Below, piece by piece: positions 21,082 to 48,000 of a stretch of DNA of 64,000 nt. The stretch spans positions 932,001-996,000 of the forward strand of contig JASTWF010000033.1 of NCBI GenBank assembly GCA_030390025.1, given 5' to 3'. Each line of letters starts with the position of its first letter. Position 1 is the stretch's first letter. The stretch is from Squalus acanthias. Taxonomy: Eukaryota. The notes under the pieces were generated by a model. It saw nothing but the letters and a program-made list of their open reading frames with translations. It searched no databases and was not told the DNA's origin. The position numbers and the translations under genes were made by a program.

Positions 21082-21151
21082 TCATGATGCGGAGATGCCG
21101 GCGTAGGACTGGGGTGGACAAAAGTGAGAAGTCGCACAACACCAGGTTATA
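21082..21151 (-). mobile_element. Penelope-like terminal repeat fragment, left part, split by Tx1 copy 1
   Basis: Reverse complement of the PLE end at 45083-45151; continues at 32846-32910. Confidence 0.9.
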
Positions 21152-21641
21152 GTCCAACAGTTTTATTTGAAATCACAAGCTTTCGGAGCGGCTGACTGAG
21201 GAGCAGCGGCAGCAGAGTGGTGGTCTCTGTGGCCAGGAAGAGGAGAAGGAGAAGGAGAGCAGACAGCAGGCCACCACCAACAACAACCAACAACCACAAC
21301 TACTGAGGTGCCTGGAGAGAGAGGACAGGAGAGGAGAGAGAAAAGAAAAGAAGGCCAAGGCCATTAACAACAGAGGAGAGGCCTTTCCACACTGCCTCAT
21401 CAATTGGCCTCCATTTTAGGAGAGGGAGAGAGGGGAGAAAACAACAAAACATCCATCATCTGTTTGGAAGGAGGAAGGAAGGAAAGAACATCAGCTACAG
21501 GTGGGTGTGATTCTGGTGCACTCTCCCAGAGACTTTGTTTTGTAGGTGGGGGGAGGAAAGAAGAAAAATAAGAAGGCCGGAACATCCAAGGGGTGTGTGT
21601 GTGTGTGTGTGTGGCTTCTGTAAAAGCTAGGCCGCACACAC

Positions 21642-21824
21642 TGTGGTAACACTTTTCAGCTTCCTGTATGACATCACTTCCTGTAATCAGTCCAGGATAA
21701 ATACTGGACTGATCAGTTAGCTCTGGAAGAGGCATAGGGTAAGACCTCTTTTGTATGCAGCACCGTTTTAAGTTGATTAAAGCTTACATTAAGTTTACCA
21801 CGCGTAAGGCTCATTCTTACGACA
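21642..21824 (+). repeat. Gypsy 5' LTR
   Basis: TGTGGTAAC...TTACGACA; identical by eye to the 3' LTR. Confidence 0.97.
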
Positions 21825-21901
21825 ATTTAATCAACTTTTGAAACTTCGCACTCAAACTTTTTGGACGAACTCGGAGCTAAGGATCCAGGGAATCACCCAT
21901 C

Positions 21902-25858: not shown

Positions 25859-25876
25859 TCTTTTGGGGGGGGAGAA

Positions 25877-26059
25877 TGTGGTAACACTTTTCAGCTTCCT
25901 GTATGACATCACTTCCTGTAATCAGTCCAGGATAAATACTGGACTGATCAGTTAGCTCTGGAAGAGGCATAGGGTAAGACCTCTTTTGTATGCAGCACCG
26001 TTTTAAGTTGATTAAAGCTTACATTAAGTTTACCACGCGTAAGGCTCATTCTTACGACA
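25877..26059 (+). repeat. Gypsy 3' LTR
   Basis: Copy of 21642-21824, preceded by the polypurine tract. Confidence 0.97.
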
Positions 26060-26088
26060 CACACCATATTAAACACCCCTTTCCCATT

Positions 26089-26177
26089 ATAACAACAGAA
26101 AACGCTGGAAAAACTCAGCAGGCCAGGCAGCATCCGTAGAGAGAGAAAGAGAGTTGACGTTCCAGGTCGATGACTGA
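26089..26177 (-). mobile_element. 89-bp insertion in the Tx1 copy 1 5'UTR; probable terminal fragment of a second PLE family
   Basis: Absent from copy 3; flanked by direct repeat CCTTTCCCATT (26078-26088, 26178-26188). Minus strand shows a broken hammerhead half (GTCATCGACCTGGAACGT). Family call is from recall. Confidence 0.6.
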
Positions 26178-26698
26178 CCTTTCCCATTGCCTGACCTGGG
26201 ACAGCTGGAGCTGCCTAGGTGAAGTCCCCAATTAATTTAATCTTATTGGGCATCGTTAAGACCTGGTGCAGGACTGAGCCTGGGCATCGCCAGCTATCCC
26301 AGGTGAAGACATCTTCTCCCCCCACCAGAAGACCACCACCAAAGACTTTCATTACATCGGAGAGTGCACCCCCCCCTGCCAACACCCACCCACCCACCAT
26401 CCTGAGTGGCGACCCTGCCCTTGCGGCTTCCCTCCTTCCCACCCCCTCTCTCTCTCTCTTTGTCTCTTGTCTCTCTCTGCCTCTCTCTCTAAGAGGCACC
26501 TCAATTTACTTATAATTAAGTACCCATTGAGCAGAGGGGAGAAGGCCCCTCTCCCAATTCAATCAACTAAAGGGAGAGGTGTGCCTTCAATTTAACAGCT
26601 CCCTCTGCTCAGGGGAAAACAGAAACAAAAAACCGAGGCCATTAACACCTTCAGGCCTGTGACTTGGGGTGAGTGTAGCCCTTAAAGACCCGTCCATT

Positions 26699-28853
26699 AT
26701 GGCGAGCACATCTTCGTCGGTGGCGGGGGCAGCGAGGACGTATGCGAGCGTGGCAGCCGCGGCCACGGCCGCAGCCACGAGTCCTCCTGTTACCCCGTCA
26801 CCTTTTACCCTCTTTACGAGGAAGAATGGGGTCAAGAGCTACACTCACCCCAACATGACTATAGAGGCGTGCGTAAAAGCCATGGCTGGGGTTGTCGGCC
26901 CTTCAGCCATCGTCGCCGCCTCTAAAATGTACGGCAAGGCTGTGTTCTTCCTGGGGTCGGAGCGGGCGGTGTCCCTGGCCATCGAGAAGGGGCTCACCGT
27001 GGGCGGGACCTTCCTGCCGGTGGACCCCCTTGAGGCCACCGCGCAAAGGATTGTGGTTTCCAATGTCCCGCCCTTTGTTCCGGGTGAGCTCCTCCTCCCC
27101 CACCTACGTCAACTGGGGGAGGTGAGGTCGGGGATCACACCCATCCCGCTCGGCTTCCGGGAAGCCAGCCTTCGGCACGTCTTCTCCTTCCGGCGCCAGC
27201 TTTTCGTCCGGCTGGCGCGGGAGGAGGACGCGGATGGCGCGTTCATAGTGCTCCACGGGGGGACCGCCCACCGCGTCTTCTGGACCTCGGACAGCGTGCG
27301 GTGCTACGCCTGTAAGGAGGTGGGGCACGTCCGCAAAAACTGCCCCGCCTCCAAGGCCGCCACGACACCTGGCGCGGCCAGGGCTGGCGCCGCCGCCCCC
27401 CCTCCCCCTGACACAGTCCGCGCGTCGACGGCGACGGATGCGCGGTCGAAATCGGAGGCCAACACCATCACGGCCTCCGGGGGGGGGAGGGAGAGCGTCC
27501 GGGGGGAAGGAAGGCGCGTAGAAAAAATAAACACCTAAGGGCGGATCCCCTCGTGGAGGAAACATCCGAGTTGACCGAACTCACGCCCGAGTACATCGCG
27601 GAGTTGATTGGGACGCCTGAGACTGGGGGGGTCCTCGTGCCCGGGCCCGTGACCGTGACCGCAACTGCCGAGGCAGCTAAATCAAGACCTGCGGCCGGGC
27701 TCGGGCCCGAGGGGCCCAAGAAACCCAGTCGTCGGAAGGGGGCAGAGAGAGAGGCCCCAGCAGACATGGAGGCCTCCCCCTCTCCGGGCCCCAACTTGTT
27801 AAAAAGAAAGCTCCGCCCCCAGGAGGAGGACTGCGAGGAGGAAGGTCCCTCCGCAGAAGGGGGGGAGTCGCCCGCCGCGGGTGCTGCGCCCCACCCCACC
27901 ACCGTCATCGTCACACGCGATCGGCAGGGGTCGTCTGTCCCTCGGGAGGGTGAGACAGCCGAGTCTGTCCGACCTGTGCGTCCCGGGGATGGGGAAGAGA
28001 CCCTGCCCGTGGGGGGGGGGCACGGAACGACCCGCGGAGGGAAATGTAGTTCCGTAACCGTTGCTCCTCGCCGGGTCGGGCGTCCTGGGGACTGGGGCGG
28101 GCGAGGCCAAAGAGGCTGAAGCCGAGCCCGCCTTTTATAACCCAGATATCTCCCAGGGACTGCTCGACCTGGTGGAGGAGTGTAGCAATCCCCAGCCCGC
28201 TGGGTCGGAGGTTGGTGGCGGGGAGACAGAAAGCCCCCTGACTCCGTCTCTGATGTTGGCGCCGGACGTACTGGAGGAATTTGAGATTATTTTCTCCCCG
28301 GTTTCTCCGGTCGCTCCGGCGCCTGAGGCGGGGGGGGGGCCCTGAACCGCCGCCGCCTCCCGGCCCGGCGCCCCTGAAGGAGCCCAGGGTGGACTCCTCT
28401 GCCACCGATCCTGGGGGTGGGATCGTGACGGAGGCGGGGCCGGCCGGTGCGGCCGAGCCGTTCGCTGCACCCCGTGCGACGGACGGGTCGGCCGCCGGTG
28501 ACGACCTCCCGGAGGAGGACGGGGACTCGGTGGTGGGCATCGAGGACGATTTGGAGTCCATCGGCAGCGAGGTGATGGACTCCCTCGTGCCCTTCACCAA
28601 CTCTCCCCTCATCCCCGTAGGGGAACTCCGGGATTTTATGGTCATGAGCCAGGGTCGTCACAAGAAGATCCGGCTGGCCCTCGACAAGTGGTCGGAGCTG
28701 GCGCTGCTCGTCGTGTCCGTCCGCGCCGCCGTTAAAATCATGGGCGCGGACAAGGACTTTGGCCGGCTCGAGCTGCGTCGGCTCAAGAGTTTCCACACTG
28801 GGCTGCTGAGGGAGTGGCGGTCGTCAGTGACCGCGCTCCCTCCCCTCCGTTAG
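26699..28853 (+). pseudogene. Tx1 copy 1 ORF1 (nucleic-acid-binding protein with CCHC knuckle), frameshifted
   Basis: IVVSNVPPFV, FSFRRQ, CYACKEVGHVRKNC; frame changes relative to copy 3 at G runs near 27480, 28015 and 28335. Confidence 0.9.
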
Positions 28854-28878
28854 GTAGAGGTTGCACTATGCTTCTGAG

Positions 28879-31800
28879 ATGAAGATAACCATAGCCAGCC
28901 TCAACATCAACGGCAGCAGGGAGGCGCGCCGTAGATTCAATAACTTCTCGGTCCTTCGGGACGGGAAATATGCGGTGTGCTTCCTGCAAGAAACCCACAC
29001 CGCTCCGGGAGACGAGGCCACGTGGCTCCTGGAGTGGCAAGGAGCGGTCAGCATGAGTCACCTCTCCAACAATTCCTGTGGGGTGGCTGTCTTGCTGGCC
29101 CCGCATTTTCAGCTGGAGATCTTGAGGGTCAAGGAGCACGTGCCGGGCCGCTTGCTCCAGGTCACTGTTCGCCTGGGAGGCGTGCCGCTCCATTAAGTGA
29201 ATGTGTACGCCCCCCGGACCGGTGCGCAGCAAGTGCGCTTCTTCGGAGAAGTGTCCGCTCTTCTGGGCTCCATCGACGTGGGCGAGTGCGTCATCCTCGG
29301 GGGGGATTTCAATTGTACCCTCGAGGCGCGGGACCGGTCGGGTCCCCCGCGAAGCCCGGCGGCGATGGAGAAGTTGCGGGACCTGGTCGGGTCCTTCGAC
29401 TTGGTGGACGTCTGGCGAAATCTCCATCCAGACTCCAGCGCCTTCACGAGCGTGAGGTCTGGAGGAGGAAGGTCCAGAATCGACCGCCTTTACATTTCCC
29501 GGGCGTACGTCTCCTGCGTTCCGGCGGCTTCCATGCGGCCGGTGCCGTGCACGGACCACCACCTGGTGTGGGCGGAGCTCGCTCCACTGCGCGCGCGGGG
29601 GGGGTCCGCGTACTGGCATTTTAACAACCTGCTGCTGGAGGACGCGCGGGTCCGGGATTCGTTTCGCCGGTTCTGGGCCGACTGGAGAAGGAAGCGGGGA
29701 GGATTCCCCTCCTTGAGGCTATGGTGGGACGTGGGCAAGGCTCACGTCCGCGTCTTCTGTCAGGAGTACGCGAAGGGGTCGACCAAGAGGCGGGAGGCCC
29801 GGGTCGGGCGATTGGAGAAAGAAGTGCTCGACCTGGAGTCCCGTCTCGGTCAGGTCGTCGAGGACCCGGCCCTGCGGAAGGTGTACGAAGAGAAGAAGGG
29901 CGCGCTGAAGGACCTGCAGCTGGTCGGGTCCCGAGGCGCGTACGTGAGGTCGCGGATCCAGTTCCTGTGGGACCTGGACCGCGGCTCCCCCTTCTTCTAC
30001 TCGCTGGAAAAAAGACGGGGGGTCCATAAGCAGCTCTTGGGGCTGCTGGCCGACGACGGATCTCTGGTCTCGGATCCGGAGGGCATCAGCGCGGAGGCCC
30101 GGGCCTATTACGGGGCTCTGTTCTCTTCGGATCCGTCCAGCGAGGATGCGCGCAGAGTTTTGTGGGAGGACCTGACGAAGGTCGGCCCGGAGGGCGCCGA
30201 GAATTTAGAAGCTCCGCTAAGCCTGGCGGAGCTGACCGGCGCCCTGCGCCAGCTCTCGAGGGGCAAGTCCCCGGGGCTGGACGGGCTGACCGTGGAGTTC
30301 CACAGGGCGTTCTGGGACGACTTGGGGGACGACTACGCGCGGGTCCTGGGGGAAAGTCTGGCGACCGGGGAGATGCCCCTCTCTTGGCGCAGGGCGGTCA
30401 TCGTCCTGCTGCCCAAGAAGGGCGATCTCCGCCTACTTAAGAACTGGCGCCCGGTCTCCCTCCTCAGCACGGACTACAAAATTTTCGCCAGGGCTATGTC
30501 TGCTCGCCTTGGCACCGTGCTGGCCCGCATGATCCACCCCGACCAGTCCTACACGGTCCCGGGCCGGAGTATCCACGATAACATCCATCTGGTCCGGGAC
30601 CTGGTCCACCATTCCCAGAGGGCTGGTCTGTCGGTCGCCTTCCTTTCCCTGGATCAGGAGAAGGTGTTCGACAGGGTGGATCACGAGTATCTTTTCGGGA
30701 CTCTGCGCGCATTCGGGTTCGGGACGCATTTCGTCGCCCGGATCCGACTTCTGTACGCCGCCGCGGAGTGTCTCATTAAAGTTAACGGGTCTTTGACGGC
30801 GCCCCTTCGCTTCGGGAGGGGGGTGCGTCAGGGATGCCCCATGTCCGGTCAGTTATACACCATTTGCGTGGAGCCTTTCCTGCGCCTCTTGCGGAAGAGG
30901 TTGACGGGACTGGCTCTGCAAGGGCCGGGCGTGGAGGTGGTCATCTCGGCTTACGCCGATGACGTGCTCCTCGCGGTCACGGATCCCGTCGACTTGCGGA
31001 GGATGCGAGAATGTCAGCAGATTTACTCGGATGCATCCTCCGCCAAGATCAACTGGGAGAAATGTTCTGGACTCCTGGTGGGCCCATGGCGGGTGGACTC
31101 CCTGCCGAAGGAGTTCGGGCCTTTCGGCTGGAGCACCACGCACCTCCTCTACCTGGGAGTCTACCTCAGCCCGGCCGAGGACGCCTGGCCGTCGAACTGG
31201 CAAGAGCTGGAGGCCAAAGTCACCGCTCGCCTAGGGCGCTGGACAGGACTGCTCCGAGTGTTGTCCTACAGGGGTCGAGCGCTGGTCATAAACCAGCTGG
31301 TGGCCGCCATGTTGTGGTACCGGGTGGTCACTTTGATCCCTCCCCCTGCGTTTGTCGCCAAGATGCAGAAGAAGCTCGTCGACTTCTTCTGGGACAAAAG
31401 GAAGCACTGGGTCTCTGCCGCGGTTTTGAGTCTCCCGCTTAGGGAGGGCGGTCAGGCGCTGGTGTGCCTTCGCACCCAGGCGGCGACTTTCCATCTTCAG
31501 ACGCTGCAGAGATACCTGTACGTGGAGAATCCTCCTAGGTGGCGTGCGCTGGCGACGTATTTCTTCCGCCAGCTGCACGGCCTCAATTACGACACGCAGC
31601 TCCTGTTTGTGAGAGTGGGTGGCACGCGTGCCAGCCTGCGGGAGCTGCCTGTCTTCTACCAGGTACTGCTATGGGTTTGGAACAGCGTCGCCTCCGAGCG
31701 CAGTTCTCCCCCGTCAGGAGCGGCGGCCGTTCTTCGGGAGCCGCTGTTCAGGAATCCGCACCTCCACGACCGCGGGTTCGGCTGGCTGGCGGAGGGTAGG

Positions 31801-32778
31801 GCTGTGCCCGGTAAGGTGACCAGAGTCGGGGACCTGCTCGATGGCGGAGGAGCGGGCTGGATGGCGCCGGAGGAGTTGGCGAGGCGCATGTCCAGGGTCA
31901 ACGTCCGGCTCGCGGTCAAAGCCATCGAGTCGCTAAAAGTGGCACTGGGCCCCGTCTCCACTAGGTGTGTCGAGGAGGCTCAAGCACGTGGGGCGATCCC
32001 GTCCGAACTGACCCCCGTTCGGACGGAATTCCTTATCGGTGCCCGGCCCCGAATCCTCCCTCGGGAGCCGCCGCCTCACCACTTGAGCCTTCTCGGAGAA
32101 ATGCCCTCCGTGCCCTTTCAATCCGCACGGAGGCGTTTCCTGTACGGGCTGCTCCTGCATACTCTCCACTTTTCCATCTTCGTCTGCCGTCCGGACACGC
32201 CTTGGCGTACCATCCTGCCGTCCGGCGGAGGCGAAGGTCCCCATTGGAAGGCTCTCTACGCAGGAGTCTTCCCTTGTTCTATTGGGGACTTGGCCTGGAG
32301 GGTGTTGCACGGAGCAGTCCCGTGCAATATGATTTTAAGAAGGTTTACGGACTCCCAGGCTGCTTGCCATTTCTGCGGCCTGGAGGAGTCCGTCTATCAC
32401 ATTTATATTGAGTGTGAGAGGTTGCAGCCTCTCTTTCATTATTTGAAGGGGCTGCTCCTCAATTTCTGGTTGCACTTCAGCCCCACGCTCCTGATCTACG
32501 GTCAGCCGGTGCGGAGGGGAGCGGGTAGGTCGGAGGACCTCCTCGTAGGACTGCTCCTGGGCCTGTCCAAGAAAGCCATTAATTGGTCCAGGCAGCGGGC
32601 GGTCGAGGGGGTCGTTCGGCCCGATTGCCTGCCTCTCTTCCGCGGCCATGTTCGCGCCCGGGTGGCCCTGGAGATGGAGCACGCGGTGTCCGCCGGCACG
32701 CTTGAGTTTTTCCGCGACCGGTGGGCGCCGCGGGGGCTGGAGTGCATCGTCACCCCGGACTTCCAAATTTTGATTTGA
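28879..32778 (+). pseudogene. Tx1 copy 1 ORF2 (APE endonuclease, RT, Cys-rich C-terminus), one premature stop
   Basis: SLNING, LQETH, GGDFN, RIDRLY, TDH; GVRQGCP, YADD; CHFC..H....C. TAA at 29194-29196 where copy 3 has TTA. Confidence 0.95.
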
Positions 32779-32845
32779 TTTATTAAGTTTCATTTAAAGT
32801 TTTAATTGATTTACAGTAAATTTTGATTTGTCCAACCAAAAAGAG

Positions 32846-32910
32846 CAACACCAGGTTATAGTCCAACAGATTTATTTAAAATTACAAGCTTTCGGAACAG
32901 TCGCCACTTC
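32846..32910 (-). mobile_element. PLE terminal repeat fragment, right part, truncated inside the hammerhead
   Basis: Matches 44196-44260. Confidence 0.9.
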
Positions 32911-32917
32911 TATCTCT

Positions 32918-33398
32918 AATTAGAGATAGATGACAGGGTCATTGAGGGGAACACAGTAACTGCAATTAGAGATAGATGACAGGGTAATTTAGGGGAACAC
33001 AGTAACTGTAATTAGAGATAGAGGACAGGGTAATTTAGGGGAACACAGTAACTGTGTAATTAGAGAAGAGGACAAGGTAATTTAGGGGAACACAGTAACT
33101 GTGTAATTAGTGATACAGGACAGGGTAATTTAGGGGAACACAGTAATTGTGTAAATAGAGATAGAGGAAAGGTTAATTTAGGGGAACACAGCAATTGTGT
33201 AATTAGAGATAGAGGACAGAGTAATATAGCGGAACACAGGAACTGTGTAATTAGAGATAGAGGGCAGGGTAATTTAGGGGAACACGGTAACTGTAATTAG
33301 AGATAGAGGGCTGGGTAATTTAGGGGAACACAGTAACTGTATAATTAGAGATAGAGGACAGAGTAATTTAGGGGAACACAGTAACTGTATAATTAGAT
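32918..33398 (+). repeat. 48/46-bp satellite block 2
   Basis: About ten tandem units. Confidence 0.97.
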
Positions 33399-33399
33399 G

Positions 33400-33469
33400 T
33401 CATGATGCGGAGATGCCGGTGTTGGACTGCGGTGGACAAAAGTGAGAAGTCGCACAACACCAGGTTATA
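33400..33469 (-). mobile_element. PLE terminal repeat fragment, left part, split by Tx1 copies 2-4
   Basis: Near-identical to 21082-21151; continues at 42833-42897. Confidence 0.9.
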
Positions 33470-35604
33470 TTCGGGTTCGGGACGCATTTCGTCGCCCGGA
33501 TCCGACTTCTGTACGCCGCCGCGGAGTGTCTCATTAAAGTTAACGGGTCTTTGACGGCGCCCCTTCGCTTCGGGAGGGGGGTGCGTCAGGGATGCCCCAT
33601 GTCCGGTCAGTTCTACGCCGTTTGCGTGGAGCCTTTCCTGCGCCTCTTGCGGAAGAGGTTGATGGGACTGGCTCTGCAAGGGCCAGGCGTGGAGGTGGTC
33701 CTCTCGGCTTACGCCGATGACGTGCTCCTCGCGGTCACGGATCCCGTCGACTTGCGGAGGATGCGAGAATGCCAGCAGATTTACTCGGATGCATCCTCCG
33801 CCAAGTTCAACTGGGAGAAATGTTCTGGACTCCTGGTGGGCCCATGGCGGGTGGACTCCCTGCCGGAGGAGTTCGGGCCTTTCGCCTGGAGCACCACGCA
33901 CCTCCTCTACCTGGGAGTCTACCTCAGCCCGGCCGAGGACTCCTGGCCGGCGAACTGGCAAGAGCTGGAGGCCAAAGTCACCGCTCGCCTAGGGCGCTGG
34001 ACAGGACTGCTCCGAGTGTTGTCCTACAGGGGTCGAGCGCTGGTCATAAACCAGCTGGTGGCCGCCATGTTGTGGTACCGGTTGGTCACTTTGATCCCTC
34101 CCCCTGCGTTTGTCGCCAAGATGCAGAAGAAGCTCGTCGACTTCTTCTGGGACAAAAGGAAGCACTGGGTCTCTGCCGCGGTTTTGAGTCTCCCGCTTAG
34201 GGAGGGCGGTCAGGCGCTGGTGTGCCTTCGCACCCAGGCGGCGACTTTCCGTCTTCAGACGCTGCAGAGATACCTGTACGTGGAGAATCCTCCTAGGTGG
34301 CGTGCGCTGGCGACGTATTTCTTCCGCCAGCTGCACGGCCTCAATTACGACACGCAGCTCCTGTTTGTGAGAGTGGGTGGCACGCGTGCCAGCCTGCGGG
34401 AGCTGCCTGTCTTCTACCAGGAACTGCTATGGGTTTGGAACAGCGTCGCCTCCGAGCGCAGTTCTCCCCCGTCAGGAGCGGCGGCCGTCCTTCGGGAGCC
34501 GCTGTTCAGGAATCCGCACCTCCACGACCGCGGGTTCGGCTGGCTGGCGGAGGACAGGGCTGTGCCCGGTAAGGTGACCAGAGTCGGGGACCTGCTCGAT
34601 GGCGGAGGAGCGGGCTGGATGGCGCCGGATGAGTTGGCGAGGCGCATGTCCTGGGTCAACGTCCGGCTCGCGGTCAAAGCCATCGAGTCGCTAAAAGTGG
34701 CACTGGGCCCCGTCTCCACTAGGTGTGTCGAGGAGGCTCAAGCACGTGGGGCGATCCCGTCCGAACTGACCCCCGTTCGGACGGAATTCCTTATCGGCGC
34801 CCGGCCCCGAATCCTCCCTCGGGAGCCGCCGCCTCACCACTTGAGCCTTCTCGGAGAAATGCCCTCCGTGCCCTTTCAATCCGCACGGAGGCGTTTCCTG
34901 TACGGGCTGCTCCTGCACACTCTCCACTTTGCCATCTTCGTCTGCCGTCCGGACACGCCTTGGCGTACCATCCTGCCGTCCGGCAGAGGCGAAGGTCCCC
35001 ATTGGAAGGCTCTCTACGCGGGAGTCTTCCCTTGTTCTATTGGGGACTTGGCTTGGAGGGTGTTGCACGGAGCAGTCCCGTGCAATAGGATTTTAAGTAG
35101 GTTTACGGACTCCCAGGCTGCTTGCCATTTCTGCGGCCTGGAGGAGTCCGTCTATCACGTTTATATTGAGTGTGAGAGGTTGCAGCCCCTCTTTCATTAT
35201 TTGAAGGGGCTGCTCCTCAATTTCTGGTTGCACTTCAGCCCCACGCTCCTGATCTACGGTCACCCGGTGCGGAGGGGAGCGGGTAGGTCGGAGGACCTCC
35301 TCGTAGGACTGCTCCTGGGCCTGGCCAAGAAAGCCATTAATTGGTCCAGGCAGCGGGCGGTCGAGGGGGTCGTTCGGCCCGATTGCCTGCCTCTCTTCCG
35401 CGGCCATGTTCGCGCCCGGGTGGCCCTGGAGATGGAGCACGCGGTGTCCGCCGGCACGCTTGAGTTTTTCCGCGACCGGTGGGCGCCGCGGGGACTGGAG
35501 TGCATCGTCACCCCGGACTTCCAAATTTTGATTTGATTTACTAAGTTTCATTTAAAGTTTTAATTGATTTACAGTAAATTTATCATTTGTCCAACCAAAA
35601 AGAG
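33470..35604 (+). mobile_element. Tx1 copy 2, 5'-truncated within RT (2.1 kb)
   Basis: Starts at ttcgggttcgggacgc (equivalent to about 30712), open to the stop at 35536, ends AAAAAGAG; duplication at 33455-33469 and 35605-35619. Confidence 0.95.
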
Positions 35605-36640
35605 CAACACCAGGTTATAGTCCAACAGCTTTATTTGAAATCACAAGCTTTCGGAGCTGCTGACGAAGGAGCAGAAGCAGCAGAGTGGTGGTCTCTGTGA
35701 CCAGGAAGAGGAGAAGGAGAAGGAGAACAGACAGCAGGCCACCACCAACACCCAACAACCACAACAACTGAGGTGCCTGGAGAGAGAGGACAGGAGAGGA
35801 GAAGGAAAAGAAAGGAAGGCCAAGGCCATTAACAACAGAAGAGAGGCCTTTCCACCACTGCCTCCTCAATTGGCCTCCATTTTAGGAGAGGGAGAGAGGG
35901 GAGAAAACATCACAAACAAACATCATCTGTTTGGAAGGAGGAGGAAGGAATGAAAGAAACATCTACAGGTGGGTGATCTATTTGGTGCACTCTCCCAGAG
36001 ACTTTGTTTTGTAGGTGGGGGGAGGAAAGAAGAAAAAGAAGAAGGCCGGAACATCCAAGGGGTGTGTGTGTGTGTGTGTGTGGCTTCTGTAAAAGCTAGG
36101 CCGCACACACCATATTAAACACCCCTTTCCCATTGCCTGACCTGGGACAGCTGGAGCTGCCTAGGTGAAGTCCCCAATTAATTTAATCTTATTGGGCATC
36201 GTTAAGACCTGGTGCAGGACTGAGCCTGGGCATCTCCAGCTATCCCAGGTGAAGACATCTTCTCCCCCCACCAGAAGACCACCACCAAAGACTTTTATTA
36301 CATCGGAGAGTGCACCCCCCTGCCAACACCCACCCACCCACCATCCTGAGTGGCGACCCTGCCCTTGCGGCTTCCCTCCTTCCCACCCCCTCTCTCTCTC
36401 TCTTTGTCTCTTGTCTCTCTCTGCCTCTCTCTCTAAGAGGCACCTCAATCTATTTTAATTAAGTACCTATTGAGCAGAGGGGAGAAGGCCCCTCTCCCAA
36501 TTAATTCATATAAAGGGAGAGGTGTGCCTTCAATTTAAGAGCTCCCTCTGCTCAGGGGAAAACATGAACAAAAACCGAGGCCATTAACACCTTCAGGCCT
36601 GTGACTTGGGGTGAGTGTAGCCCTTAAAGACCAACCCATC

Positions 36641-38803
36641 ATGGCGACCACATCTTCGCCGGTGGCGGGGGCAGCGAGGACATACGCGAGCGTGGCAGCC
36701 GCGGCCACGGCCGCAGCCACGAGTCCTCCTGTTACCCCGTCACCTTTTACCCTCCTTACGAGGAAGAATGGGGTCAAGAGCTACACTCACCCCAACATGA
36801 CTGTAGAGGCGTGCGTAAAAGCCATGGCTGGGGTTGTCGGCCCTTCAGCCATCGTCGCCGCCTCTAAAATGTACGGCAAGGCTGTGTTCTTCCTGGGGTC
36901 GGAGCGGGCGGTGTCCCTGGCCATCGAGAAGGGGCTCACCGTGGGCGGGACCTTCCTGCCGGTGGACCCCCTTGAGGCCACCGCGCAAAGGATTGTGGTT
37001 TCCAACGTCCCGCCCTTTGTTCCGGGTGAGCTCCTCCTCCCCCACCTACGTCAACTGGGGGAGGTGAGGTCGGGGATCACACCCATCCCGCTCGGCTTCC
37101 GGGAAGCCAGCCTTCGGCACGTCTTCTCCTTCCGGCGCCAGCTTTTCGTCCGGCTGGCGCGTGAGGAGGACGCGGATGGCGCGTTCACGGTGCTCCACGG
37201 GGGGACCGCCCACCGCGTCTTCTGGACCTCGGACGGCGTGCGGTGCTACGCCTGGAAGGAGGTGGGGCACGTCCGCAAAAACTGCCCCGCCTCCAAGGCC
37301 GCCACGACACCTGGCGCGGCCAGGGCTGGCGCCGCCGCCCCCCCTCCCCCTGATACTGTCCGCGCGTCGACGGCGACGGATGCGCGGTCGAAATCGGAGG
37401 CCAACGCCACCACGGCCTCCGGCGGGGAGGAGGGAGAGCGTCCGGGGGGAAGGAAGGCGCGCAGAAAAAATAAACACCTAAGGGCGGATCCCCTCGTGGA
37501 GGAAACATCCGAGTTGACCGAACTCACGCCCGAGTACATCGCGGAGTTGATCGGGACGCATGAGACTGGGGGGGTCCTCGTGCCCGGGCCCGTGCCCGTG
37601 CCCGTGACCGCAACTGCCGAGGCCGCTGAATCAAGACCTGCGGCCGGGCTCGGGCCCGAGGGGCCCAAGAAACCCAGTCGTCAGAATGTGGCAGAGAGGG
37701 AGGCCCCAGCAGACATGGAGGCCTCCCCCTCTCCGGGCCCCAATATGTTAAAAAGAAAGCTCCGCCCCCAGGAGGAGGAGGACTGCGAGGAGGAAGGTCC
37801 CTCCGCAGAAGGGGGGGAGTCGCCCGCCGCGGTTGCTGCGCCCCACCCCACCACCGTCATCGTCGCGCGCGAGCGGCGGGGGTCGCCTGTCCCTCGGGAG
37901 GGTGAGACAGCCGAGTCTGTCCGACCTGTGCCTCCCGGGGATGGGGAAGAGACCCTGCCCGTGGGGGGGGGCGCGGGACAACCCGCGGAGGGAAATGTAG
38001 TTCCGGAACCGTTGCTCCTCGCCGGGTCGGGCGTCCTGGGGACTGGGGCGGGCGAGGCCAAAGAGGCTGAAGCCGAGCCCGCCTTTTATAACCCAGATAT
38101 CTCCCAGGGACTGCTCGACCTGGTGGAGGATTATAACAATCCCCAGCCCGCTGGGTCGGAGGTTGGTGGCGGGGAGACAGAAAGCCCCCTGACTCCGTCT
38201 CTGATGTTGGCGCCGGACGTACTGGAGGAATTTGAGATTATTTTCTCCCCGGTTTCTCCGGTCGCTCCGGCACCTGAGGCGGGGGGGGGCCCTGAACCGC
38301 CGCCGCCTCCCGGCCCGGCGCCCCTGAAGGAGCCCAGGGTGGACTCCTCTGCCACCGATCCTGGGGGTGGGATCGTGACGGAGGCGGGGCCGGCCGGTGC
38401 GGCCGAGCCGTTCGCTGCACCCCATGTGACGGACGGGTTGGCCGCCGGTGACGACCTCCCGTAGGAGGACGGGGACTCAGTGTTGGGCACCGAGGACGAT
38501 TTGGAGTCCATCAGCAGCGAGGCGATGGACGCCCTCGTGCCCTTCACCGACTCTCCCCTCATCCCCGTAGGGGAACTCCGGGATTTTATGGCCATGAGCC
38601 AGGGTCGTCACAAGAAGATCCGGCTGGCCCTCGACAAGTGGTCGGAGCTGGCGCTGCTCGTCGTGCCCGTCCGCGCCGCCGTTAAAATCATGGGCGCGGA
38701 CAAGGACGTTGGCCGGCTTGAGCTGCGTCGGCTCAAGAGTTTCCACACTGGGCTGCTGAGGGAGTGGCGGTCGTCAGTGACCGCGCTCCCTCCCCTCCGT
38801 TAG
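36641..38803 (+). pseudogene. Tx1 copy 3 ORF1, one premature stop
   Basis: Single frame; TAG at 38462-38464 where copy 1 has GAG; knuckle altered to CYAW. Confidence 0.92.
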
Positions 38804-38828
38804 GTAGAGGTTGCACTATGCTTCTGAG

Positions 38829-41800
38829 ATGAAGATAACCATAGCCAGCCTCAACATCAACGGCAGCAGGGAGGCGTGCCGTAGATTCAATAACTTCTCG
38901 GTCCTTCGGGACGGGAAATATGCGGTGTGCTTCCTGCAAGAAACCCACACCGTTCCGGGAGACGAGGCCACGTGGCTCCTGGAGTGGCAAGGAGGGGTCA
39001 GCATGAGTCACCTCTCTAACAATTCCTGCGGGGTGGCTGTCTTGCTGGCCCCACATTTTCAGACGGAGATCTTGAAGGTCAAGGAGCACGTGCCGGGCCG
39101 CTTGCTCCAGGTCACTGTTCGCCTTGGAGGCGTGCCGCTCCATTTAGTGAACGTGTACGCCCCCCGGACCGGTGCGCAGCACGTGCGCTTCTTCGGAGAA
39201 GTGTCCGCTCTTCTGGGCTCCATCGACGTGGGCGAGTGCGTCATCCTCGGGGGGGATTTCAATTGTACCCTCGAGGCGCGGGACCGGTCGGGTCCCCCGC
39301 GAAGCCCGGCGGCGATGGAGAAGTTGCGGGACCTGGTCGGGTCCTTCGACTTGGTGGACGTCTGGCGAAATCTCCATCCCGACTCCAGCGCCTTCACGAG
39401 CGTGAGGTCTGGAGGAGGAAGGTCCAGAGTCGACCGCCTTTACATTTCCCGGGCGTACGTCTCCTGCGTTCCGGCGGCTTCCATGCAGCCGGTGCCGTGC
39501 ACGGACCACCACCTGGTGTGGGCGGAGCTCGCTCCGCTGCGCGCGCGGGGGGGTTCCGCGTACTGGCATTTTAACAACCTGCTGCTGGAGGACGCGCGGT
39601 TCCGGGATTCGTTTCGCCGGTTCTGGGCCGACTGGAGAAGGAAGCGGGGAGGCTTCCCCTCCTTGAGGCTAAGGTGGGACGTGGGCAAGGCTCACGTCCG
39701 CGTCTTCTGTCAGGAGTACGCGAAGGGGTCGACCAAGAGGCGGGAGGCCCGGGTCGGGCGATTGGAGAAAGAAGTGCTCGACCTGGAGTCCCGTCTCGGT
39801 CAAGTCGTCGAGGACCCGGCCCTGCGGAAGGTGTACGAAGAGAAGAAGGGTGCGCTGAAGGACCTGCAGCTGGCCGGGTCCTGAGGCGCGTACGTGAGGT
39901 CGCGGATCCAGTTCCTGCGGGACCTGGACCGCGGCTCCCCCTTCTTCTACTCGCTGGAAAAAAGACGGGGGGTCCGTAAGCAGCTCTTGGGGCTGCTGGC
40001 CGACGACGGATCTCTTGTCTCGGATCCGGAGGGCATCAGCGCGGAGGCCCGGGCCTATTACGGGGCTCTGTTCTCTTCGGATCCGTCCAGCGAGGATGCG
40101 CGCAGAGTTTTGTGGGAGGACCTGCCGAAGGTCGGCCCGGAGTGCGCCGAGAATTTAGAAGCTCCGCTAAGCCTGGCGGAGCTGACCGGCGCCCTGCGCC
40201 AGCTCTCGAGGGGCAAGTCCCCGGGGCTGGACGGGCTGACCGTGGAGTTCCACAGGGCATTCTGGGACATCTTGGGGGACGACTACGCGCAGGTCCTGGG
40301 GGAAAGTCTGGCGACCGGGGAGATGCCCCTCTCTTGGCGCAGGGCGGTCATCGTCCTGCTGCCCAAGAAGGGCGATCTCCGCCTACTTAAGAACTGGCGC
40401 TCGGTCTCCCTCCTCAGCACGGACTACAAAATTTTCGCCAGGGCTATGTCTGCTCGCCTTGGCACCGTGCTGGCCCGCATGATCCACCCCGACCAGTCCT
40501 ACACGGTCCCGGGCCGGAGCATCCACGATAACATCCATCTGGTCCGGGACCTGGTCCACCATTCCCAGAGGGCTGGTCTGTCGGTCGCCTTCCTTTCCCT
40601 GGATCAGGAGAAGGCGTTCGACAGGGTGGATCACGAGTATCTTTTCGGGACTCTGCGCGCATTCGGGTTCGGGACGCATTTCGTCGCCCGGATCCGACTT
40701 CTGTACGCCGCCGCGGAGTGTCTCATTAAAGTTAACGGGTCTTTGACGGCGCCCCTTCGCTTCGGGAGGGGGGTGCGTCAGGGATGCCCCATGTCCGGTC
40801 AGTTATACGCCGTTTGCGTGGAGCCTTTCCTGCGCCTCTTGCGGAAGAGGTTGACGGGACTGGCTCTGCAAGGGCCGGGCGTGGAGGTGGTCCTCTCAGC
40901 TTACGCCGATGACGTGCTCCTCGCGGTCACGGATCCCGTCGACTTGCGGAGGATGCGAGAATGCCAGCAGATTTACTCGGACGCATCCTCCGCCAAGATC
41001 AACTGGGAGAAATGTTCTGGACTCCTGGTGGGCCCATGGCGGGTGGACTCCCTGCCGGAGGAGTTCGGGCCTTTCGCCTGGAGCACCACGCACCTCCTCT
41101 ACCTGGGAGTCTACCTCAGCCCGGCCGAGGACGCCTGGCCGGCGAACTGGCAAGAGCTGGAGGCCAAAGTCACCGCTCGCCTAGGGCGCTGGACAGGACT
41201 GCTCCGAGTGTTGTCCTACAGGGGTCGAGCGCTGGTCATAAACCAGCTGGTGGCCGCCATGTTGTGGTACCGGTTGATCACTTTGATCCCTCCCCCTGCG
41301 TTTGTCGCCAAGATGCAGAAGAAGCTTGTCGACTTCTTCTGGGACAAAAGGAAGCACTGGGTCTCTGCCGCGGTTTTGAGTCTCCCGCTTAGGGAGGGTG
41401 GTCAGGCGCTGGTGTGCCTTCGCACCCAGGCGGCGACTTTCCGTCTTCAGACGCTGCAGAGATACCTGTACGTGGAGAATCCTCCTAGGTGGCGTGCGCT
41501 GGCGACGTATTTCTTCCGCCAGCTGCACGGCCTCAATTACGACACGCAGCTCCTGTTTGTGAGAGTGGGTGGCACGCGTGCCAGCCTGCGGGAGCTGCCT
41601 GTCTTCTACCAGGAACTGCTATGGGTTTGGAACAGCGTCGCCTCCGAGCGCAGTTCTCCCCCGTCAGGAGCGGCGGCCGTCCTTCGGGAGCCACTGTTCA
41701 GGAATTCGCACCTCCACGACCGCGGGTTCGGCTGGCTGGCGGAGGGCAGGGCTGTGCCCGGTAAGGTGACCAGAGTCGGGGACCTGCTCGATGGCAGAGG

Positions 41801-42728
41801 AGCGGGCTGGATGGCGCCGGAGGAGTTGGCGAGGCGCATGTCCTGGGTCAACGTCCGGCTCGCGGTCAAAGCCATCGAGTCGCTAAAAGTGGCACTGGGC
41901 CCCGTCTCCACTAGGTGTGTCGAGGAGGCTCAGGCACGTGGGGCGATCCCGTCCGATCTGACCCCCGTTCGGACGGAATTCCTTATCGGCGCCCGGCCCC
42001 GAATCCTCCCTCGGGAGCCGCCACCTCACCACTTGAGCCTTCTCGGAGAAATGCCCTCCGTGCCCTTTCAATCCGCACGGAGGCGTTTCCTGTACGGGCT
42101 GCTCCTGCACACTCTCCACTTTGCCATCTTCGTCTGCCGTCCGGACACGCCTTGGCGTACCATCCTGCCGTCCAGCGGAGGCGAAGGTCCCCATTGGAAG
42201 GCTCTCTACGCGGGAGTCTTCCCTTGTTCTATTGGGGACTTGGCCTGGAGGGTGTTGCACGGAGCAGTCCCGTGCAATAGGATTTTAAGTAGGTTTACGG
42301 ACTCCCAGGCTGCTTGCCATTTCTGCGGCCTGGAGGAGTCCGTCTATCACATTTATGTTGAATGTGAGAGGTTGCAGCCCCTCTTTCATTATTTGAAGGG
42401 GCTGCTCCTCAATTTCAGGTTGCACTTCAGCCCCACGCTCCTGATCTACGGTCACCCGGTGCGGAGGGGAGCGGGTAGGTCGGAGGACCTCCTCGTAGGA
42501 CTGCTCCTGGGCCTGGCCAAGAAAGCCATTAATTGGTCCAGGCAGCGGGCGGTCGAGGGGGTCGTTCGGCCCGATTGCCTGCCTCTCTTCCGCGGCCGTG
42601 TTCGCGCCCGGGTGGCCCTGGAGATGGAGCACGCGGTGTACGCCGGCACGCTTGAGTTTTTCCGCGACCGGTGGGCGCCGCGGGGGCTGGAGTGCATCGT
42701 CACCCCGGACTTCCAAATTTTGATTTGA
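38829..42728 (+). pseudogene. Tx1 copy 3 ORF2, one premature stop
   Basis: APE, RT (YADD) and Cys-rich motifs; TGA at 39882-39884 where copy 1 has CGA. Confidence 0.95.
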
Positions 42729-42809
42729 TTTATTAAGTTTCATTTAAAGTTTTAATTGATTTACAGTAAATTTTGATTTGTCAACCAAAAAGAGCAACAC
42801 CAGGTTATA

Positions 42810-42832
42810 TTGATTTGTCCAACCAAAAAGAG
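42810..42832 (+). mobile_element. Tx1 copy 4, 23-bp extreme 5' truncation (TTGATTTGTCCAACCAAAAAGAG)
   Basis: Last 23 nt of the element between target copies at 42795-42809 and 42833-42847 (one mismatch). Confidence 0.75.
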
Positions 42833-42897
42833 CAACACCAGGTTCTAGTCCAACAGATTTATTTAAAATTACAAGCTTTCGGAGCTGTCGCCACTTC
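42833..42897 (-). mobile_element. PLE terminal repeat fragment, right part
   Basis: Same sequence and truncation point as 32846-32910. Confidence 0.9.
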
Positions 42898-42904
42898 TAT
42901 CTCT

Positions 42905-44188
42905 AATTAGAGATAGATGACAGGGTCATTGAGGGGAACACAGTAACTGTAATTCGAGCTGGAGGACAAGGTAATTTGGGGGAACACAGTAACTGTAATT
43001 AGAGATAGATGACAGGGTCATTGAGGGGAACACAGTAAATGTAATTAGAGATAGAGGACAAGGTAATTTAGGGGAACACAGTAACTGTGTAATTAAAGAT
43101 GGAGGACAGGGTAATTTAGTGGATCACAGGAACTGTGTAATTAGAGATGTAGGACAGGGTAATTTAGGGGAACCCAGTATTGTGTAATTAGAGATAGAGG
43201 ACAGGGTAATTTAGGGGAACCCAGTAACTGTGTAATTAGAGAGAGAGGACAGGGTAATTTAGGAGAAAATTGAACTGTGTAATTAGTGATAGAGGACAGG
43301 GTAATTTAGGGGAACACAGTAACTGTGTAATTAGAGATAGAGGAGAGGGTAATTTAGGGGAACACATTAACTGTGTAATTAGAGATAGAGGACAGGGTAA
43401 TTTAGGGGAACAGTAACTGTGTAATTAGAGATAGAGGACAGGGTAATTTAGGGGAACACAGTAACTGTAATTAGAGATAGAGGGCAGGGTAATTTAGGGG
43501 AACACATTAACTGTGTAATTAGAGATAGAGGACAGGTTAATTTAGGGGAACACATTAACTGTGTAATTAGAGATAGAGGACAGGCTAATTTAGGGGAACA
43601 CAGTAACTGTAATTAGAGATAGAGGTCAGGGTAATTTAGGGGAACACAGTAACTGTGTAATTAGAGATAGAGTGCAGGGTAATTTAGGGGAACACAGTAA
43701 CACAGCAATTAGAGATAGAGGACAGGGTAATTTAGGGGAACACAGTAACTGTAATTAGAGATAGAGGGCAGGGTAATTTAGGGGAACACATTAACTGTGT
43801 AATTAGAGATAGAGGACAGGTTAATTTAGGGGAACACATTAACTGTGTAATTAGAGATAGAGGACAGGCTAATTTAGGGGAACACAGTAACTGTAATTAG
43901 AGATAGAGGTCAGGGTAATTTAGGGGAACACAGTAACTGTGTAATTAGAGATAGAGGACAGGGTAATTTAGGGGAACACAGTAACTTTGTAATTAGAGAT
44001 AGAGGACAGGGTAATTTAGGGGAACGCAGTCAGTGTTTAATTAGAGATAGCGTGCAGGGTAATTTAGGGGAACACAGAAACTGTGTAAGTAGAGCTAGAG
44101 GACAGGGTAATTTAGGGGAACACATAACTGTAATCAGAGATAGAGGGGAGGGTAATTTAGGGGAACAAAATAACTGTGTAATTAGAGA
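42905..44188 (+). repeat. 48/46-bp satellite block 3
   Basis: Tandem units. Confidence 0.97.
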
Positions 44189-44231
44189 AGTCGCACAACA
44201 CCAGGTTATAGTCCAACAGATTTATTTAATT

Positions 44232-44269
44232 TTACAAGCTTTCGGAGCTGTCGATCCTTCCTCAGGTAA
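44232..44269 (-). ncRNA. Minimal type I hammerhead ribozyme motif, one stem II mismatch
   Basis: Minus strand TTAC CTGAGGA A GGATC GACA GCTCC GAAA GC TT GTAA. Confidence 0.75.
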
Positions 44270-44467
44270 GTTAGCAGTGAGAGAATCTCCCAGAATTCAC
44301 AATTTAAACACAGACAAAATCTATTCAAATCTTTCCCTACATCAAAGACACACTAAGAGCACAGCCAAGACAATGAGATGTGTCCCAGGGCGTCCAACGT
44401 GTCAAACCACCTGCTGGCTGCATATCCAGTCAATTTGTGTTGGTTCTTGTGTTAGTCTTTTTAAACG

Positions 44468-44785
44468 GCCAACGTTGTCTACCTGATACGTTGCAGTAAA
44501 GGATGCTCCAGAGCATGGTACATCGGCGAGACCATGCAGACACTGAGACATCGTATGAACGGACACCGCGCAACAATCGCCAGGCAGGAGGGTTGCCTCC
44601 CAGTCGGGGAACACTTCAGCAGCCAGGGGCATTCAGCCTCGGATCTGCGGGTAATCGTTCTCCAAGGCGGCCTTCGGGTTACACGACAGCGCAAAATCAT
44701 AGAGCAGAAACTGATAGCCAAGTTACGCACTCATGAGGATGGCCTCAATCGCGATATCGGGTTCATGTCACGATACAGAACGTGA
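44468..44785 (+). pseudogene. PLE GIY-YIG endonuclease C-terminal coding fragment
   Basis: ANVVYLIRCSKGCSRAWYIGETMQTLRHRMNGHR..VGEHF..H..EQKLIAKLRTHEDGLNRD*: VVY/YIG, conserved R, E and GLN motifs. Confidence 0.92.
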
Positions 44786-45023
44786 CTTGACATCATGGCC
44801 GGTCTTCCCAGGTGTTTTTTCTTGTTGTTTAAAAAGACTAACACAAGAACCAACACAAATTGACAGGCTTTGCAGCCATCAGGTGGTTTGACACGTTGGA
44901 CCCCCTGGGACACATCTCATTGTCTTGGCTGTGCTCTTAGTGTGTCTTTGATGTAGGGAAAGATTTGAATAGATTTTGTCTGTGGTTAAATTGTGAATTC
45001 TGGGAGATTCTCTCACTGCTAAC

Positions 45024-45061
45024 TTACCTGAGGAAGGAGCGACAGCTCCGAAAGCTTGTAA
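45024..45061 (+). ncRNA. Minimal type I hammerhead ribozyme motif
   Basis: TTAC CTGAGGA A GGAGC GACA GCTCC GAAA GC TT GTAA: stem I TTAC/GTAA, CUGANGA core, 5-bp stem II, GAAA, palindromic stem III region, CUU triplet. Confidence 0.85.
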
Positions 45062-48000
45062 AATTAAATAAATCTGTTGTACTATAACCTGTTGTTGTGC
45101 GACCGCTCATTTTTGTCCACCCCAGTCCAACGCCGGCATCTCCACATCATGTGTAATTAGAGATAGAGGACAAGGTAATTTAGGGGAACACAGTAACTGT
45201 GTAATTAGAGATAGAGGACAAGGTCATTGAGGAGAACACTGTAACTGTGTAATTAGAGATAGAGGACAGGGTAATTGAGGGGAACACAGTAACTGTAATT
45301 AGAGATAGATGACAGGGTCATTGATGGGAACACAGTAACTGTGTAATTAGAGATAGAGGAAAGGATAATTTAGGGGAACGCAGTAACTGTGTAATTAGAG
45401 ATAGAGGACAGGGTAATTTAGGGGAATACAGTAACTGTGTAATTAGAGATAGAGGACAGGGTAAATTAGGGGAACACAATAACTGTGTAATTAGAGATAG
45501 AGGACAGGATAATTTAGGGGAACACAGTAACTGTTTAATTAGAGATAGAGGACAGGGTAATTTAGGGGAACACAGTAACTTTGTAATTAGAGATAGAGGA
45601 CAGGGTAATTTAGGGGAACACAGTAACTGTAATTAGAGATAGAAGAAAGGGTAATTTAGGGTAACACAGTAACTGTGTAATCAGAGATAGAGGACAGGGC
45701 AATTTAGGGGAACACAGTAACTGTAATTAGAGATAGAGGACAGTGTAATTTAGGGGAACACAGTAACATTGTAATTAGAGATAGAGGACAGGGTAATTTA
45801 GGGGAACACAGGTACTGTAATTAGAGATAGACAGCAGGGTAATTTAGGGGAACACAGTAACTGTGTAATTAGAGATAGAGGACAGGGAAATTTAGGGGAA
45901 CACAGTAACTTTGTAATTAGAGACAGAGGACAGGGTAATTTAGGGGAACACAGTAACTGTAATTAGAGATAGAGGACAGGGTAATTTAGGGGAACACAGT
46001 AACTGTAATTAGAGATAGAGGACAGGGTAATTCAGGGGAACACAGTAACTGAAATTAGTGATAGAGGACAGGGTAATTTAGGGGAACACAGTAACTGTGT
46101 AATTAGAGAGAGAGGACAGGGTAATTTCGGGTAACACAGTAACATTGTAATTAGAGATAGAGGACAGGGTAATTTAGGGGAACACAGTAACTTTGTAATT
46201 AGAGATAGAGGACAGGGTAATTGAGGGGAACACAGTAACTGTAATTAGAGATAGATGACAGGGTCATTGATGGGAACACAGTAACTGTGTAATTAGAGAT
46301 AGAGGAAAGGATAATTTAGGGGAACGCAGTAACTGTGTAATTAGAGATAGAGGACAGGGTAATTTAGGGGAATACAGTAACTGTGTAATTAGAGATAGAG
46401 GACAGGGTAAATTAGGGGAACACAATAACTGTGTAATTAGAGATAGAGGACAGGATAATTTAGGGGAACACAGTAACTGTTTAATTAGAGATAGAGGACA
46501 GGGTAATTTAGGGGAACACAGTGACTGTGTAATTAGAGATAGAGAACAGGGTAATTTAGGGGAACACAGTAACTGTGTAATTAGAGATAGAGGACAGGAT
46601 AATTTAGGAGAACACAGTAACTGTGTAATTAGAGATAGAGGACAGGGTAATTTAGGGGAATACAGTAACTGTGTAATTAGAGATAGAGGACAGGGTAATT
46701 TAGGGGAACACAGTAACTGTGTAATTAGAGAGAGATGACAGGGTCATTGATGGGAACACAGTAACTGTGTAATTAGAGATAGAGGACAGGATAATTTAAG
46801 GGAACACAGGTACTGTAATTAGAGATAGACAGCAGGGTAATTTAGGGGAACACAGTAACTGTGTAATTAGAGATAGAGGACAGGGTAATTTAGGGGAACA
46901 CAGTAACTTTGTAATTAGAGATAGGGGACAGGGTAATTTAGGGGAACACAGTAACTTTGTAATTAGAGATAGAGGAGAGGGTAATTTAGGGGAACACAGT
47001 AACTGTAATTAGAGATAGAGGACAGGGTAATTTAGGGGAACACAGTAACTGTAATTAGTGATAGAGGACAGGGTAATTTAGGGGAACACAGTAACTGTGT
47101 AATTAGACAGAGAGGACAGGGTAATTTAGGGTAACACAGTAACATTGTAATTAGAGATAGAGGACAGGGTAATTTAGGGGAACACAGTAACTTTGTAAAT
47201 AGAGATAGAGGACAGGGTAATTGAGGGGAACACAGTAACTGTAATTAGAGATAGATGACAGGGTCATTGATGGGAACACAGTAACTGTGTAATTAGAGAT
47301 AGAGGAAAGGATAATTTAGGGGAACGCAGTAACTGTGTAATTAGAGATAGAGGACAGGGTAATTTAGGGGAATACAGTAACTGTGTAATTAGAGATAGAG
47401 GACAGGGTAAATTAGGGGAACACAATAACTGTGTAATTAGAGATAGAGGACAGGATAATTTAGGGGAACACAGTAACTGTTTAATTAGAGATAGAGGACA
47501 GGGTAATTTAGGGGAACACAGTGACTGTGTAATTAGAGATAGAGGACAGGGTAATTTAGGGGAACACAGTAACTGTGTAATTAGAGATAGAGGACAGGAT
47601 AATTTAGGAGAACACAGTAACTGTGTAATTAGAGATAGAGGACAGGGTAATTTAGGGGAATACAGTAACTGTGTAATTAGAGATATAGGACAGGGTAAAT
47701 TAGGGGAACACAGTAACTGTGTAATTAGACATAGAGTGTAGGTTAATTTAGGGGAACACAGTAACTGTGTAATTAGAGATAGAGGACAGGGTAATTTAGG
47801 GGAACACAGTAACTGTGTAATGAGAGATAGAGGACAGGATAATTTAGGAGAACACAGTAACTGTGTAATTAGAGATAGAGGACAGGGTAATTTAGGGGAA
47901 TACAGTAACTGTGTAATTACAGATATAGGACAGGTTAATTTAGGGGAACTCAGTAACTGCAATTAGAGATAGATGACAAGGTCATTGATGGGAGCACAGT

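Follow-up and report, generated by a model that had tools for sequence, protein, structure and literature searches.

Introduction

Target-primed reverse transcription with a staggered cut is established for LINEs (PMC6895275; PMC2718515), and second-strand cutting and 5' joining in the APE-type LINEs are described as poorly understood (PMC6895275). In R2 of the earwig Forficula auricularia, all 5' junctions contain a 22-bp copy of the downstream target with 3 substitutions, which its authors explained by the propagation of an aberrant junction, through an RNA starting upstream in the target and a cDNA/target heteroduplex (PMC3774820). In Drosophila, R1 forms tandem arrays via insertion into the target-site duplication (TSD) at the 5' end of a resident copy, and the target sequence in the RNA of the melanogaster-type R1A was proposed to anneal for precise 5' joining (PMC2718515). 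Other LINEs insert site-specifically into another transposon. This is the case for Tx1L of Xenopus laevis (YTX2_XENLA), whose target is the DNA transposon Tx1D, and for the crocodilian Tx1-Mar and SINEU-3, for which a dependence on flanking transcription was suggested (PMC1950540; PMC4494074).

We report here on a LINE that shares traits with each of these systems. Like earwig R2, it has a copy of the downstream target at its 5' end, hereafter the leader. However, R2 is equipped with a restriction-like endonuclease and an HDV-like ribozyme and targets the uniform rDNA, whereas this LINE is of the APE type and its target is a polymorphic, dispersed retroelement; unlike earwig R2, it also displays several coexisting captures, with visible host-derived and hybrid leaders. 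It thus resembles R2 in carrying target sequence yet is not an R2, since an APE domain replaces the restriction-like endonuclease. Like R1, it is APE-type and forms tandem arrays (the TSD of R1 is 14 bp; PMC2718515), but R1A carries upstream target and this LINE downstream target, and arrays of units with the same start and tails from mixed donors are not described for R1 in the excerpted text of PMC2718515. Like Tx1L, to which its ORF2 is 50% identical, it is site-specific for another transposon (PMC1950540; PMC4494074), here a Penelope-like element (PLE) instead of a DNA transposon. As with Tx1-Mar/SINEU-3, the target is an abundant transposon and tandems are separated by one TSD; in the excerpted text of PMC4494074, no downstream-target leader is described for these elements and their tandems are described as sequential insertions. 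In the papers that a literature search covered, no description was found of this LINE family or of same-start, mixed-tail arrays.

The leader therefore adds a case, from another clade and with a polymorphic target, to a phenomenon already described, and taken alone it is less surprising given earwig R2. A polymorphic target combined with haplotype-rich donors amounts to a natural marker experiment, in which the crossover between target and cDNA is readable at hundreds of loci; rDNA-targeting elements cannot offer such an experiment.

Results and Discussion

Organization of the window

The window, that is the whole stretch of 64,000 nucleotides that was analyzed (G000:C2561:932001-996000), belongs to a 3.7-Gb animal genome assembly. 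The LINE, a young element of the Tx1 clade, lies antisense within the terminal repeat of a PLE, which is itself inside a tandem repeat, and an identical 15-mer flanks every LINE copy of the window (copies 1 to 4, all on the + strand). Copy 1 with its 15-mers spans 21137-32860 (element 21152-32845; 15-mers 21137-21151 and 32846-32860). It is interrupted at about 21642-26059 by an LTR retrotransposon with protease, RT, RNase H and integrase and with identical 183-bp LTRs, which sits at a CA-rich spot of the copy 1 5' UTR. Further on, a PLE upstream flank ending in a 15-mer (33399-33469, + strand; 15-mer 33455-33469) precedes copy 2, a 5'-truncated LINE (33470-35604) with a precise, non-homologous 5' join showing 1 nt of microhomology. 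At the boundary between copies 2 and 3, the 15-bp TSD (35605-35619, + strand) retains the first-strand nick site. Copy 3 (35620-42794) is a full-length LINE of about 7.18 kb with an interrupted ORF2. It is followed by copy 4, a 23-nt LINE 3' end (42810-42832) between the 15-mers 42795-42809 and 42833-42847, a leaderless tandem junction that an earlier sequence-only reading of the window had overlooked. The host PLE downstream flank, an A/T variant, comes next (42848-42903, + strand), with satellite afterwards. The same reading had placed copy 2 in the site at the 5' end of copy 3, and copy 2 does lie between the PLE upstream flank with its 15-mer and the 15-mer and leader of copy 3.

An unoccupied PLE with inverted terminal repeats is present at 44189-45149. 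It includes a frame with the YIGET motif (44468-44782) and, on the + strand, a hammerhead-like core (about 45028-45060; CUGAnGA/stem/GAAA, read by eye). These motifs fit the GIY-YIG endonuclease end and the minimal hammerhead in the terminal repeat given as PLE traits in PMC4209133; the Pfam and Rfam searches of the window PLE gave no match. This PLE is a remnant, and genome-wide many host sites are short inverted PLE pairs. The surrounding tandem repeat, with a unit of about 47-48 bp (18411-21080, 32917-33397, 42904-44188 and 45150-64000), carries duplicated PLE fragments, each struck independently by the LINE. Older LINE fragments occur at 7461-8336 and 15064-15669 (RT; endonuclease-like), outside the leader finding.

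The ORF2 of the LINE matched Pfam Exo_endo_phos and RVT_1 as well as L1 endonuclease structures, indicating an APE endonuclease and an RT, and among named elements it was closest to that of Tx1L (50% identity, 100% cover). In ORF1 of copy 1 (26663-27535), a zf-CCHC match was found (E 9e-5, above the cut-off). Insertion is sequence-specific, with 674 tail-plus-15-mer junctions found genome-wide under one pattern and duplications of 13-15 bp at truncated copies. Judged by its domains, the ORF2 similarity and the site-specific insertion, the LINE belongs to the Tx1 clade. A ribozyme in the LINE head was also considered and seems unlikely, as the Rfam search of 18000-46000 gave no match at E<=1 and no complete hammerhead was seen in the sense orientation of the LINE.

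The leader travels with the element

Copies 1 and 3 both begin with the PLE sequence that lies downstream of the 15-mer, as the sequence-only reading had proposed. Its figure of 40 nt held for copy 3 alone: compared with the local PLE after the 15-mer, the copy 3 leader (35620-35659) shows 3 mismatches in 40 nt, and against the source PLE variant the match extends to about 35662 (loose ends 35657 and 35662), so that the feature is best given as 35620-35662 (+ strand), with 40 nt against the local PLE and about 43 nt against the G/C PLE form. In copy 1, the leader (21152-21189, + strand) measures 38 nt, departing from the local PLE at 21190, and the string quoted in that reading is also 38 nt long. 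The two leaders differ from each other at +10 and +39. Both carry tttG/atCac, and all 4 local PLE sites (32861, 42848, 44211 and the minus-strand copy near 45080) carry tttA/tTac, as had been noticed. A 21-nt probe had 4 matches in the window, for 0.01 expected. Where the copy 3 leader ends, 15 nt (35660-35674, + strand) match the PLE sense strand and hold the hammerhead CUGAnGA core and the start of stem II; this is an inverted PLE piece captured together with the leader, which is of class A (see below), and the short inverted PLE pairs mentioned above are its likely source. The leader is antisense to the 3' half of the hammerhead-like core, again as had been noticed, because the LINE insertion site is itself antisense; no role was found for this overlap.

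A common leader could come from one duplicated insertion. The flanks of copies 1 and 3 go back to the duplication of one older empty site (5 differences in 112 nt). Over the 3' 1.4 kb the two copies are 1.9% different, each is nearer to copies elsewhere (1.0% and 0.93%), and no rare allele is common to both. A duplicated insertion was thus ruled out, and copies 1 and 3 are independent insertions.

Hosts of the A/T type allow leader and host to be told apart. Genome-wide, 77 tail junctions are followed by A/T-type sequence, 4 of which are leaders, leaving 73 hosts; 72 were examined (56 by blind fetch about 7.18 kb upstream, 16 from other outputs), the last one being too near a contig end. A full-length head was found in 54, a truncated one in 3, a shifted one in 2, and 13 showed no head in the fetched interval. 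Among the 54 full-length heads, 45 had a leader unlike their own host, 3 had one identical to the host and 6 were leaderless. Thus 45 of 48 leaders differ from their host and 3 match it (35 and 1 in the blind subset alone). A leader that would always be a long local TSD was rejected on this count, and the leader is element-borne as a rule, in line with the claim that it travels with the LINE, apart from the 3 exceptions and the hybrids described below. The 54 of 72 that are full-length comprise insertions in A/T hosts or last array units. Such a fraction is high for a LINE.

The source of the leader had been supposed to be a sibling PLE subfamily. A minor subfamily does not fit: exact PLE sites number 62,294 for the G/C form and 25,745 for the A/T form, and by sequence match the majority G/C form is the source. 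Hosts of the A/T type make up about 18-20% of insertions and 29% of sites, a slight shortage obtained by comparing unlike patterns, and we make no claim on it.

Leader classes and repeated capture

Heads were classified by eye in the first 100 of 934 5' UTR matches, of which 67 belonged to class A, 11 to class B and 8 to class C, and 14 were leaderless. In class A, 38-43 nt of target are present, and a short inverted piece of PLE usually comes next; leaders measure 31-34 nt in class B and 31 nt in class C. Genome-wide, leaderless heads of class D number 90, about 10% of full-length heads (90 of about 934). Two of the 14 leaderless heads (L102, L103) represent a rare sibling LINE with a longer native head and a different site (G000:C4:101.82 Mb), found in tandem, and this head is probably the ancestral one. 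In classes A, B, C and D, the target is joined to successively different points of the sibling's head, which we infer to reflect repeated capture on 5'-shortened copies. On the junction sequences, the leader (31-43 nt) was captured at least three times. An additional junction type, with a leader that matches its host, was found at L139.

A leader constant among full-length copies, expected if it travels with the LINE, was therefore found in part: it is present in most heads, but it occurs in three junction classes beside a leaderless one, and some leaders are host-copied. Its absence from other full-length copies, the opposite expectation, is true of about 10% of heads only. A contig from a different run (X11) covers the tail, the 15-mer, the leader and the UTR, with 21 substitutions, and the arrangement therefore exists outside the assembly.

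Exchange between target and element

Some leaders record a contribution of the host site. In a 4-unit array (L104, L105), leader and host have private bases in common at +10, +11 and +39, and at C3591 both units have leaders matching the host. Hybrid leaders were also found, in which a private host change is shared near the start and not further on (L117 with C3:10738821; C3:7817162 with C3:7809989). On the other side of the junction, 24 of the 90 leaderless heads have G at position 12 of the 15-mer (by eye), while the 3' copy has T in all 6 pairable cases; this variant also occurs in one class A copy (L171), and at 3 loci a variant at position 15 goes along with one and the same 5' UTR variant. 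As these bases within the 15-mer are element-borne, the template seems to reach at least into the end of the 15-mer. Taken together, the junctions indicate that the change from target to cDNA has more than one possible position.

A matching of leader and host alleles at +10 was sought in G/C hosts. A first sample read by eye gave 22 matches of 30 (12/7/1/10; p=0.007), and an independent sample 3 of 9 (2/4/2/1; p=0.52), for a combined p=0.049; we do not claim this association. Its failure to replicate implies that most switches fall close to the 15-mer, crossovers far into the leader being a minority. Two candidate markers were discarded: A at +10 in G/C leaders, seen in 3 A hosts but also in 2 T hosts (L076, L221), and a +4 variant thought private to the C2:132 Mb array, which is also present at L207.

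Tandem junctions with and without leader

Tandems are common, as a by-eye count of head-to-tail junctions revealed. In the first 100 of 674 tail junctions, the tail was followed by host PLE in 62 cases, by a leader in 27, by a class D head in 7 and by a truncated copy in 4. Tandems thus account for 38 of these 100 junctions, 11 of them without leader. Since exact PLE sites are occupied at about 0.6% (rough estimate), 38% of tandem junctions is, on these counts, far above random site choice.

The sequence-only reading explained arrays by the leader, which would rebuild the landing site and so permit successive independent insertions. Several observations agree with this proposal: most tandem junctions (27 of 38) have a leader, the downstream unit is seldom truncated (4 of 38), some arrays are mixed (4 of 18; C3645), and copy 2, which would be the latest arrival, has the fewest private differences (13, against 17 for copy 3 and 22 for copy 1). 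However, 11 of 38 tandem junctions are leaderless, adjacent D-D pairs number 21 among 90 leaderless heads (2.7 expected with random neighbours), one array consists of 14 leaderless units, and copy 4 has no leader either. Also, at least 88,000 exact empty sites are available, so that sites are not limiting, and independent donors would not yield matching heads, whereas like heads are found together in 14 of 18 arrays (by eye) and 6 of 9 pairs. In other systems, R1 forms tandems from its TSD alone (PMC2718515), and the target nicked by the Tx1L endonuclease was designed with seven marked flanking bases (PMC1950540), while the leader lies 15-58 nt from the nick. The leader as a necessity for arrays is refuted by the leaderless full-length and truncated arrays, and the rebuilding of sites as the source of arrays is very unlikely.

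Same-start, mixed-tail arrays

The array at G000:C8:141706250-141710930 (L142, L161) contains 14 leaderless units, each made of the 15-mer and about 317 nt of LINE 3' end. All 14 begin at one base, while 7 haplotypes can be distinguished in the last 24 nt; exact matches to 6 of these exist among 112 tail junctions at other loci. Seven truncated tandems were examined (two of them chosen for short spacing, L218 being left out), and the start base was common in six (L033, L054/L163, L142, L145, L146, L147/L164); only in L037 do the starts differ. Two units of 988 nt at C3:168.49 Mb have in common an odd junction and 3 bases found in 0 of 54 other copies; they are identical to nt 509, then follow two different genome-wide haplotypes. 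Full-length units behave alike at C2:132.27 Mb, where heads are identical to nt 657 and then diverge. Plain duplication would give identical tails and independent insertion different starts; neither gives a common head with a foreign tail.

Homology-guided 5' joining would explain both the leader and the arrays, and we give this reading, drawn from the junctions of one assembly, a probability of about 60%. A common head with a foreign tail would arise if the pairing of new cDNA with a resident copy were followed by second-strand priming within the homologous stretch. Same-start, mixed-tail arrays thus point to homology-templated joining over hundreds of bases, which is a testable prediction and also bears on RNA-templated insertion tools.

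Alternatively, the leader could be a neutral fossil of old long duplications, carried only via an upstream transcription start, and the arrays could result from local duplication or unequal crossing-over, with tails mixed by later gene conversion or tail replacement. Such a fossil is known in earwig R2 (PMC3774820), a leader is missing from about 10% of heads (90 of about 934), and the +10 association was not replicated. Some units are identical over 2.8 kb (L042/L043), and the C8 array has identical units in runs and common private bases, so that local exchange acts as well. However, a single truncated unit offers only 15-bp repeats to start unequal exchange, and tails differ in all three comparable same-start two-unit truncated tandems (L054, L145, L146). 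Host-identical and hybrid leaders show that leader and target paired in some events, and tail replacement by reverse transcription would itself be a homology-guided joining. We thus consider the neutral account unlikely.

Arrays, including copies 2 and 3, could also have been copied whole from read-through RNA of arrays, or by end-to-end template jumps between RNAs. The junction between copies 2 and 3 has rare tail and head variants in common with one unlinked junction (L002), so that this pair may derive from a dimer; L002 is, however, the top match to a query built from that very junction, and the next tails differ (L162 versus copy 3). An A-rich stretch before the 15-mer at two loci (L121, L195) suggests 3' read-through, that is a polyadenylated RNA, or else a sequencing artefact; at L121 this stretch comes after the tail, the 15-mer and about 22 nt of downstream-like sequence. 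On the other hand, no general linkage between tail and head was seen close to the junction (rho 0.04, p=0.32 for 29 loci), and the value of 0.43 that rho reaches across all 1.4 kb could reflect a common locus age. Moreover, whole-array copying can account neither for leaders with host-private bases inside an array nor for a set of 14 units that all start at one base, and it is hardly probable as the general origin of arrays.

Proposed mechanism

The homology-guided joining that we favour begins with steps established for LINEs: reverse transcription is primed at a bottom-strand nick that ORF2 makes at the left edge of the 15-mer, and the top strand is cut by default about 15 nt downstream, so that an intact 15-mer remains at both ends of every insertion. 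The RNA would start in or upstream of the 15-mer and would thereby take along any sequence that separates the 15-mer from the 5' UTR. A cDNA homologous to the top strand downstream of the nick would pair there, and a second-strand cut and priming inside the homology would extend the duplication; the 5' part of the new copy would then come from resident DNA and its 3' part from the donor. The same heteroduplex logic was proposed for R2 (PMC3774820) and R1A (PMC2718515). Rare far cuts, together with slightly shortened cDNAs, would have made the leaders (31, 31-34 and 38-43 nt), which would have spread through the upstream start of the RNA and would now provide a homology arm to full-length cDNA at empty sites. 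At occupied sites, the neighbouring copy would supply the homology, giving matching heads and mixed tails, with or without leader. In this view, the leader would be the relic of a long duplication, put to use today as a homology arm. Any benefit from it is supposed, since leaderless heads are full-length and precise as well. The 5' join of copy 2 is non-homologous.

In a broader version, to which we lend only tentative credit, base pairing between cDNA and target, extending over tens to hundreds of bases, would direct both the second-strand cut and the 5' joining of an APE LINE. Sites already filled would be hot spots (38% of tails followed by another copy, against about 0.6% of sites occupied), each new copy would duplicate the head of its neighbour, and the leader, as an exchangeable homology arm under selection, would account for the high full-length rate (54/72). 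If true, the position of the 5' junction in an APE LINE would be programmable by homology.

The direction of growth was considered for the C3:168.49 Mb pair, where linkage at one site (12/14 versus 7/27) leans to the upstream unit as the one from which the other derives, whereas homology-guided joining in its simplest form would have it the other way round. Finally, at two loci (L040, L182) the 3' flank retains only 3-6 nt of PLE after the 15-mer; downstream PLE sequence may thus be dispensable for insertion, or may have been deleted later.
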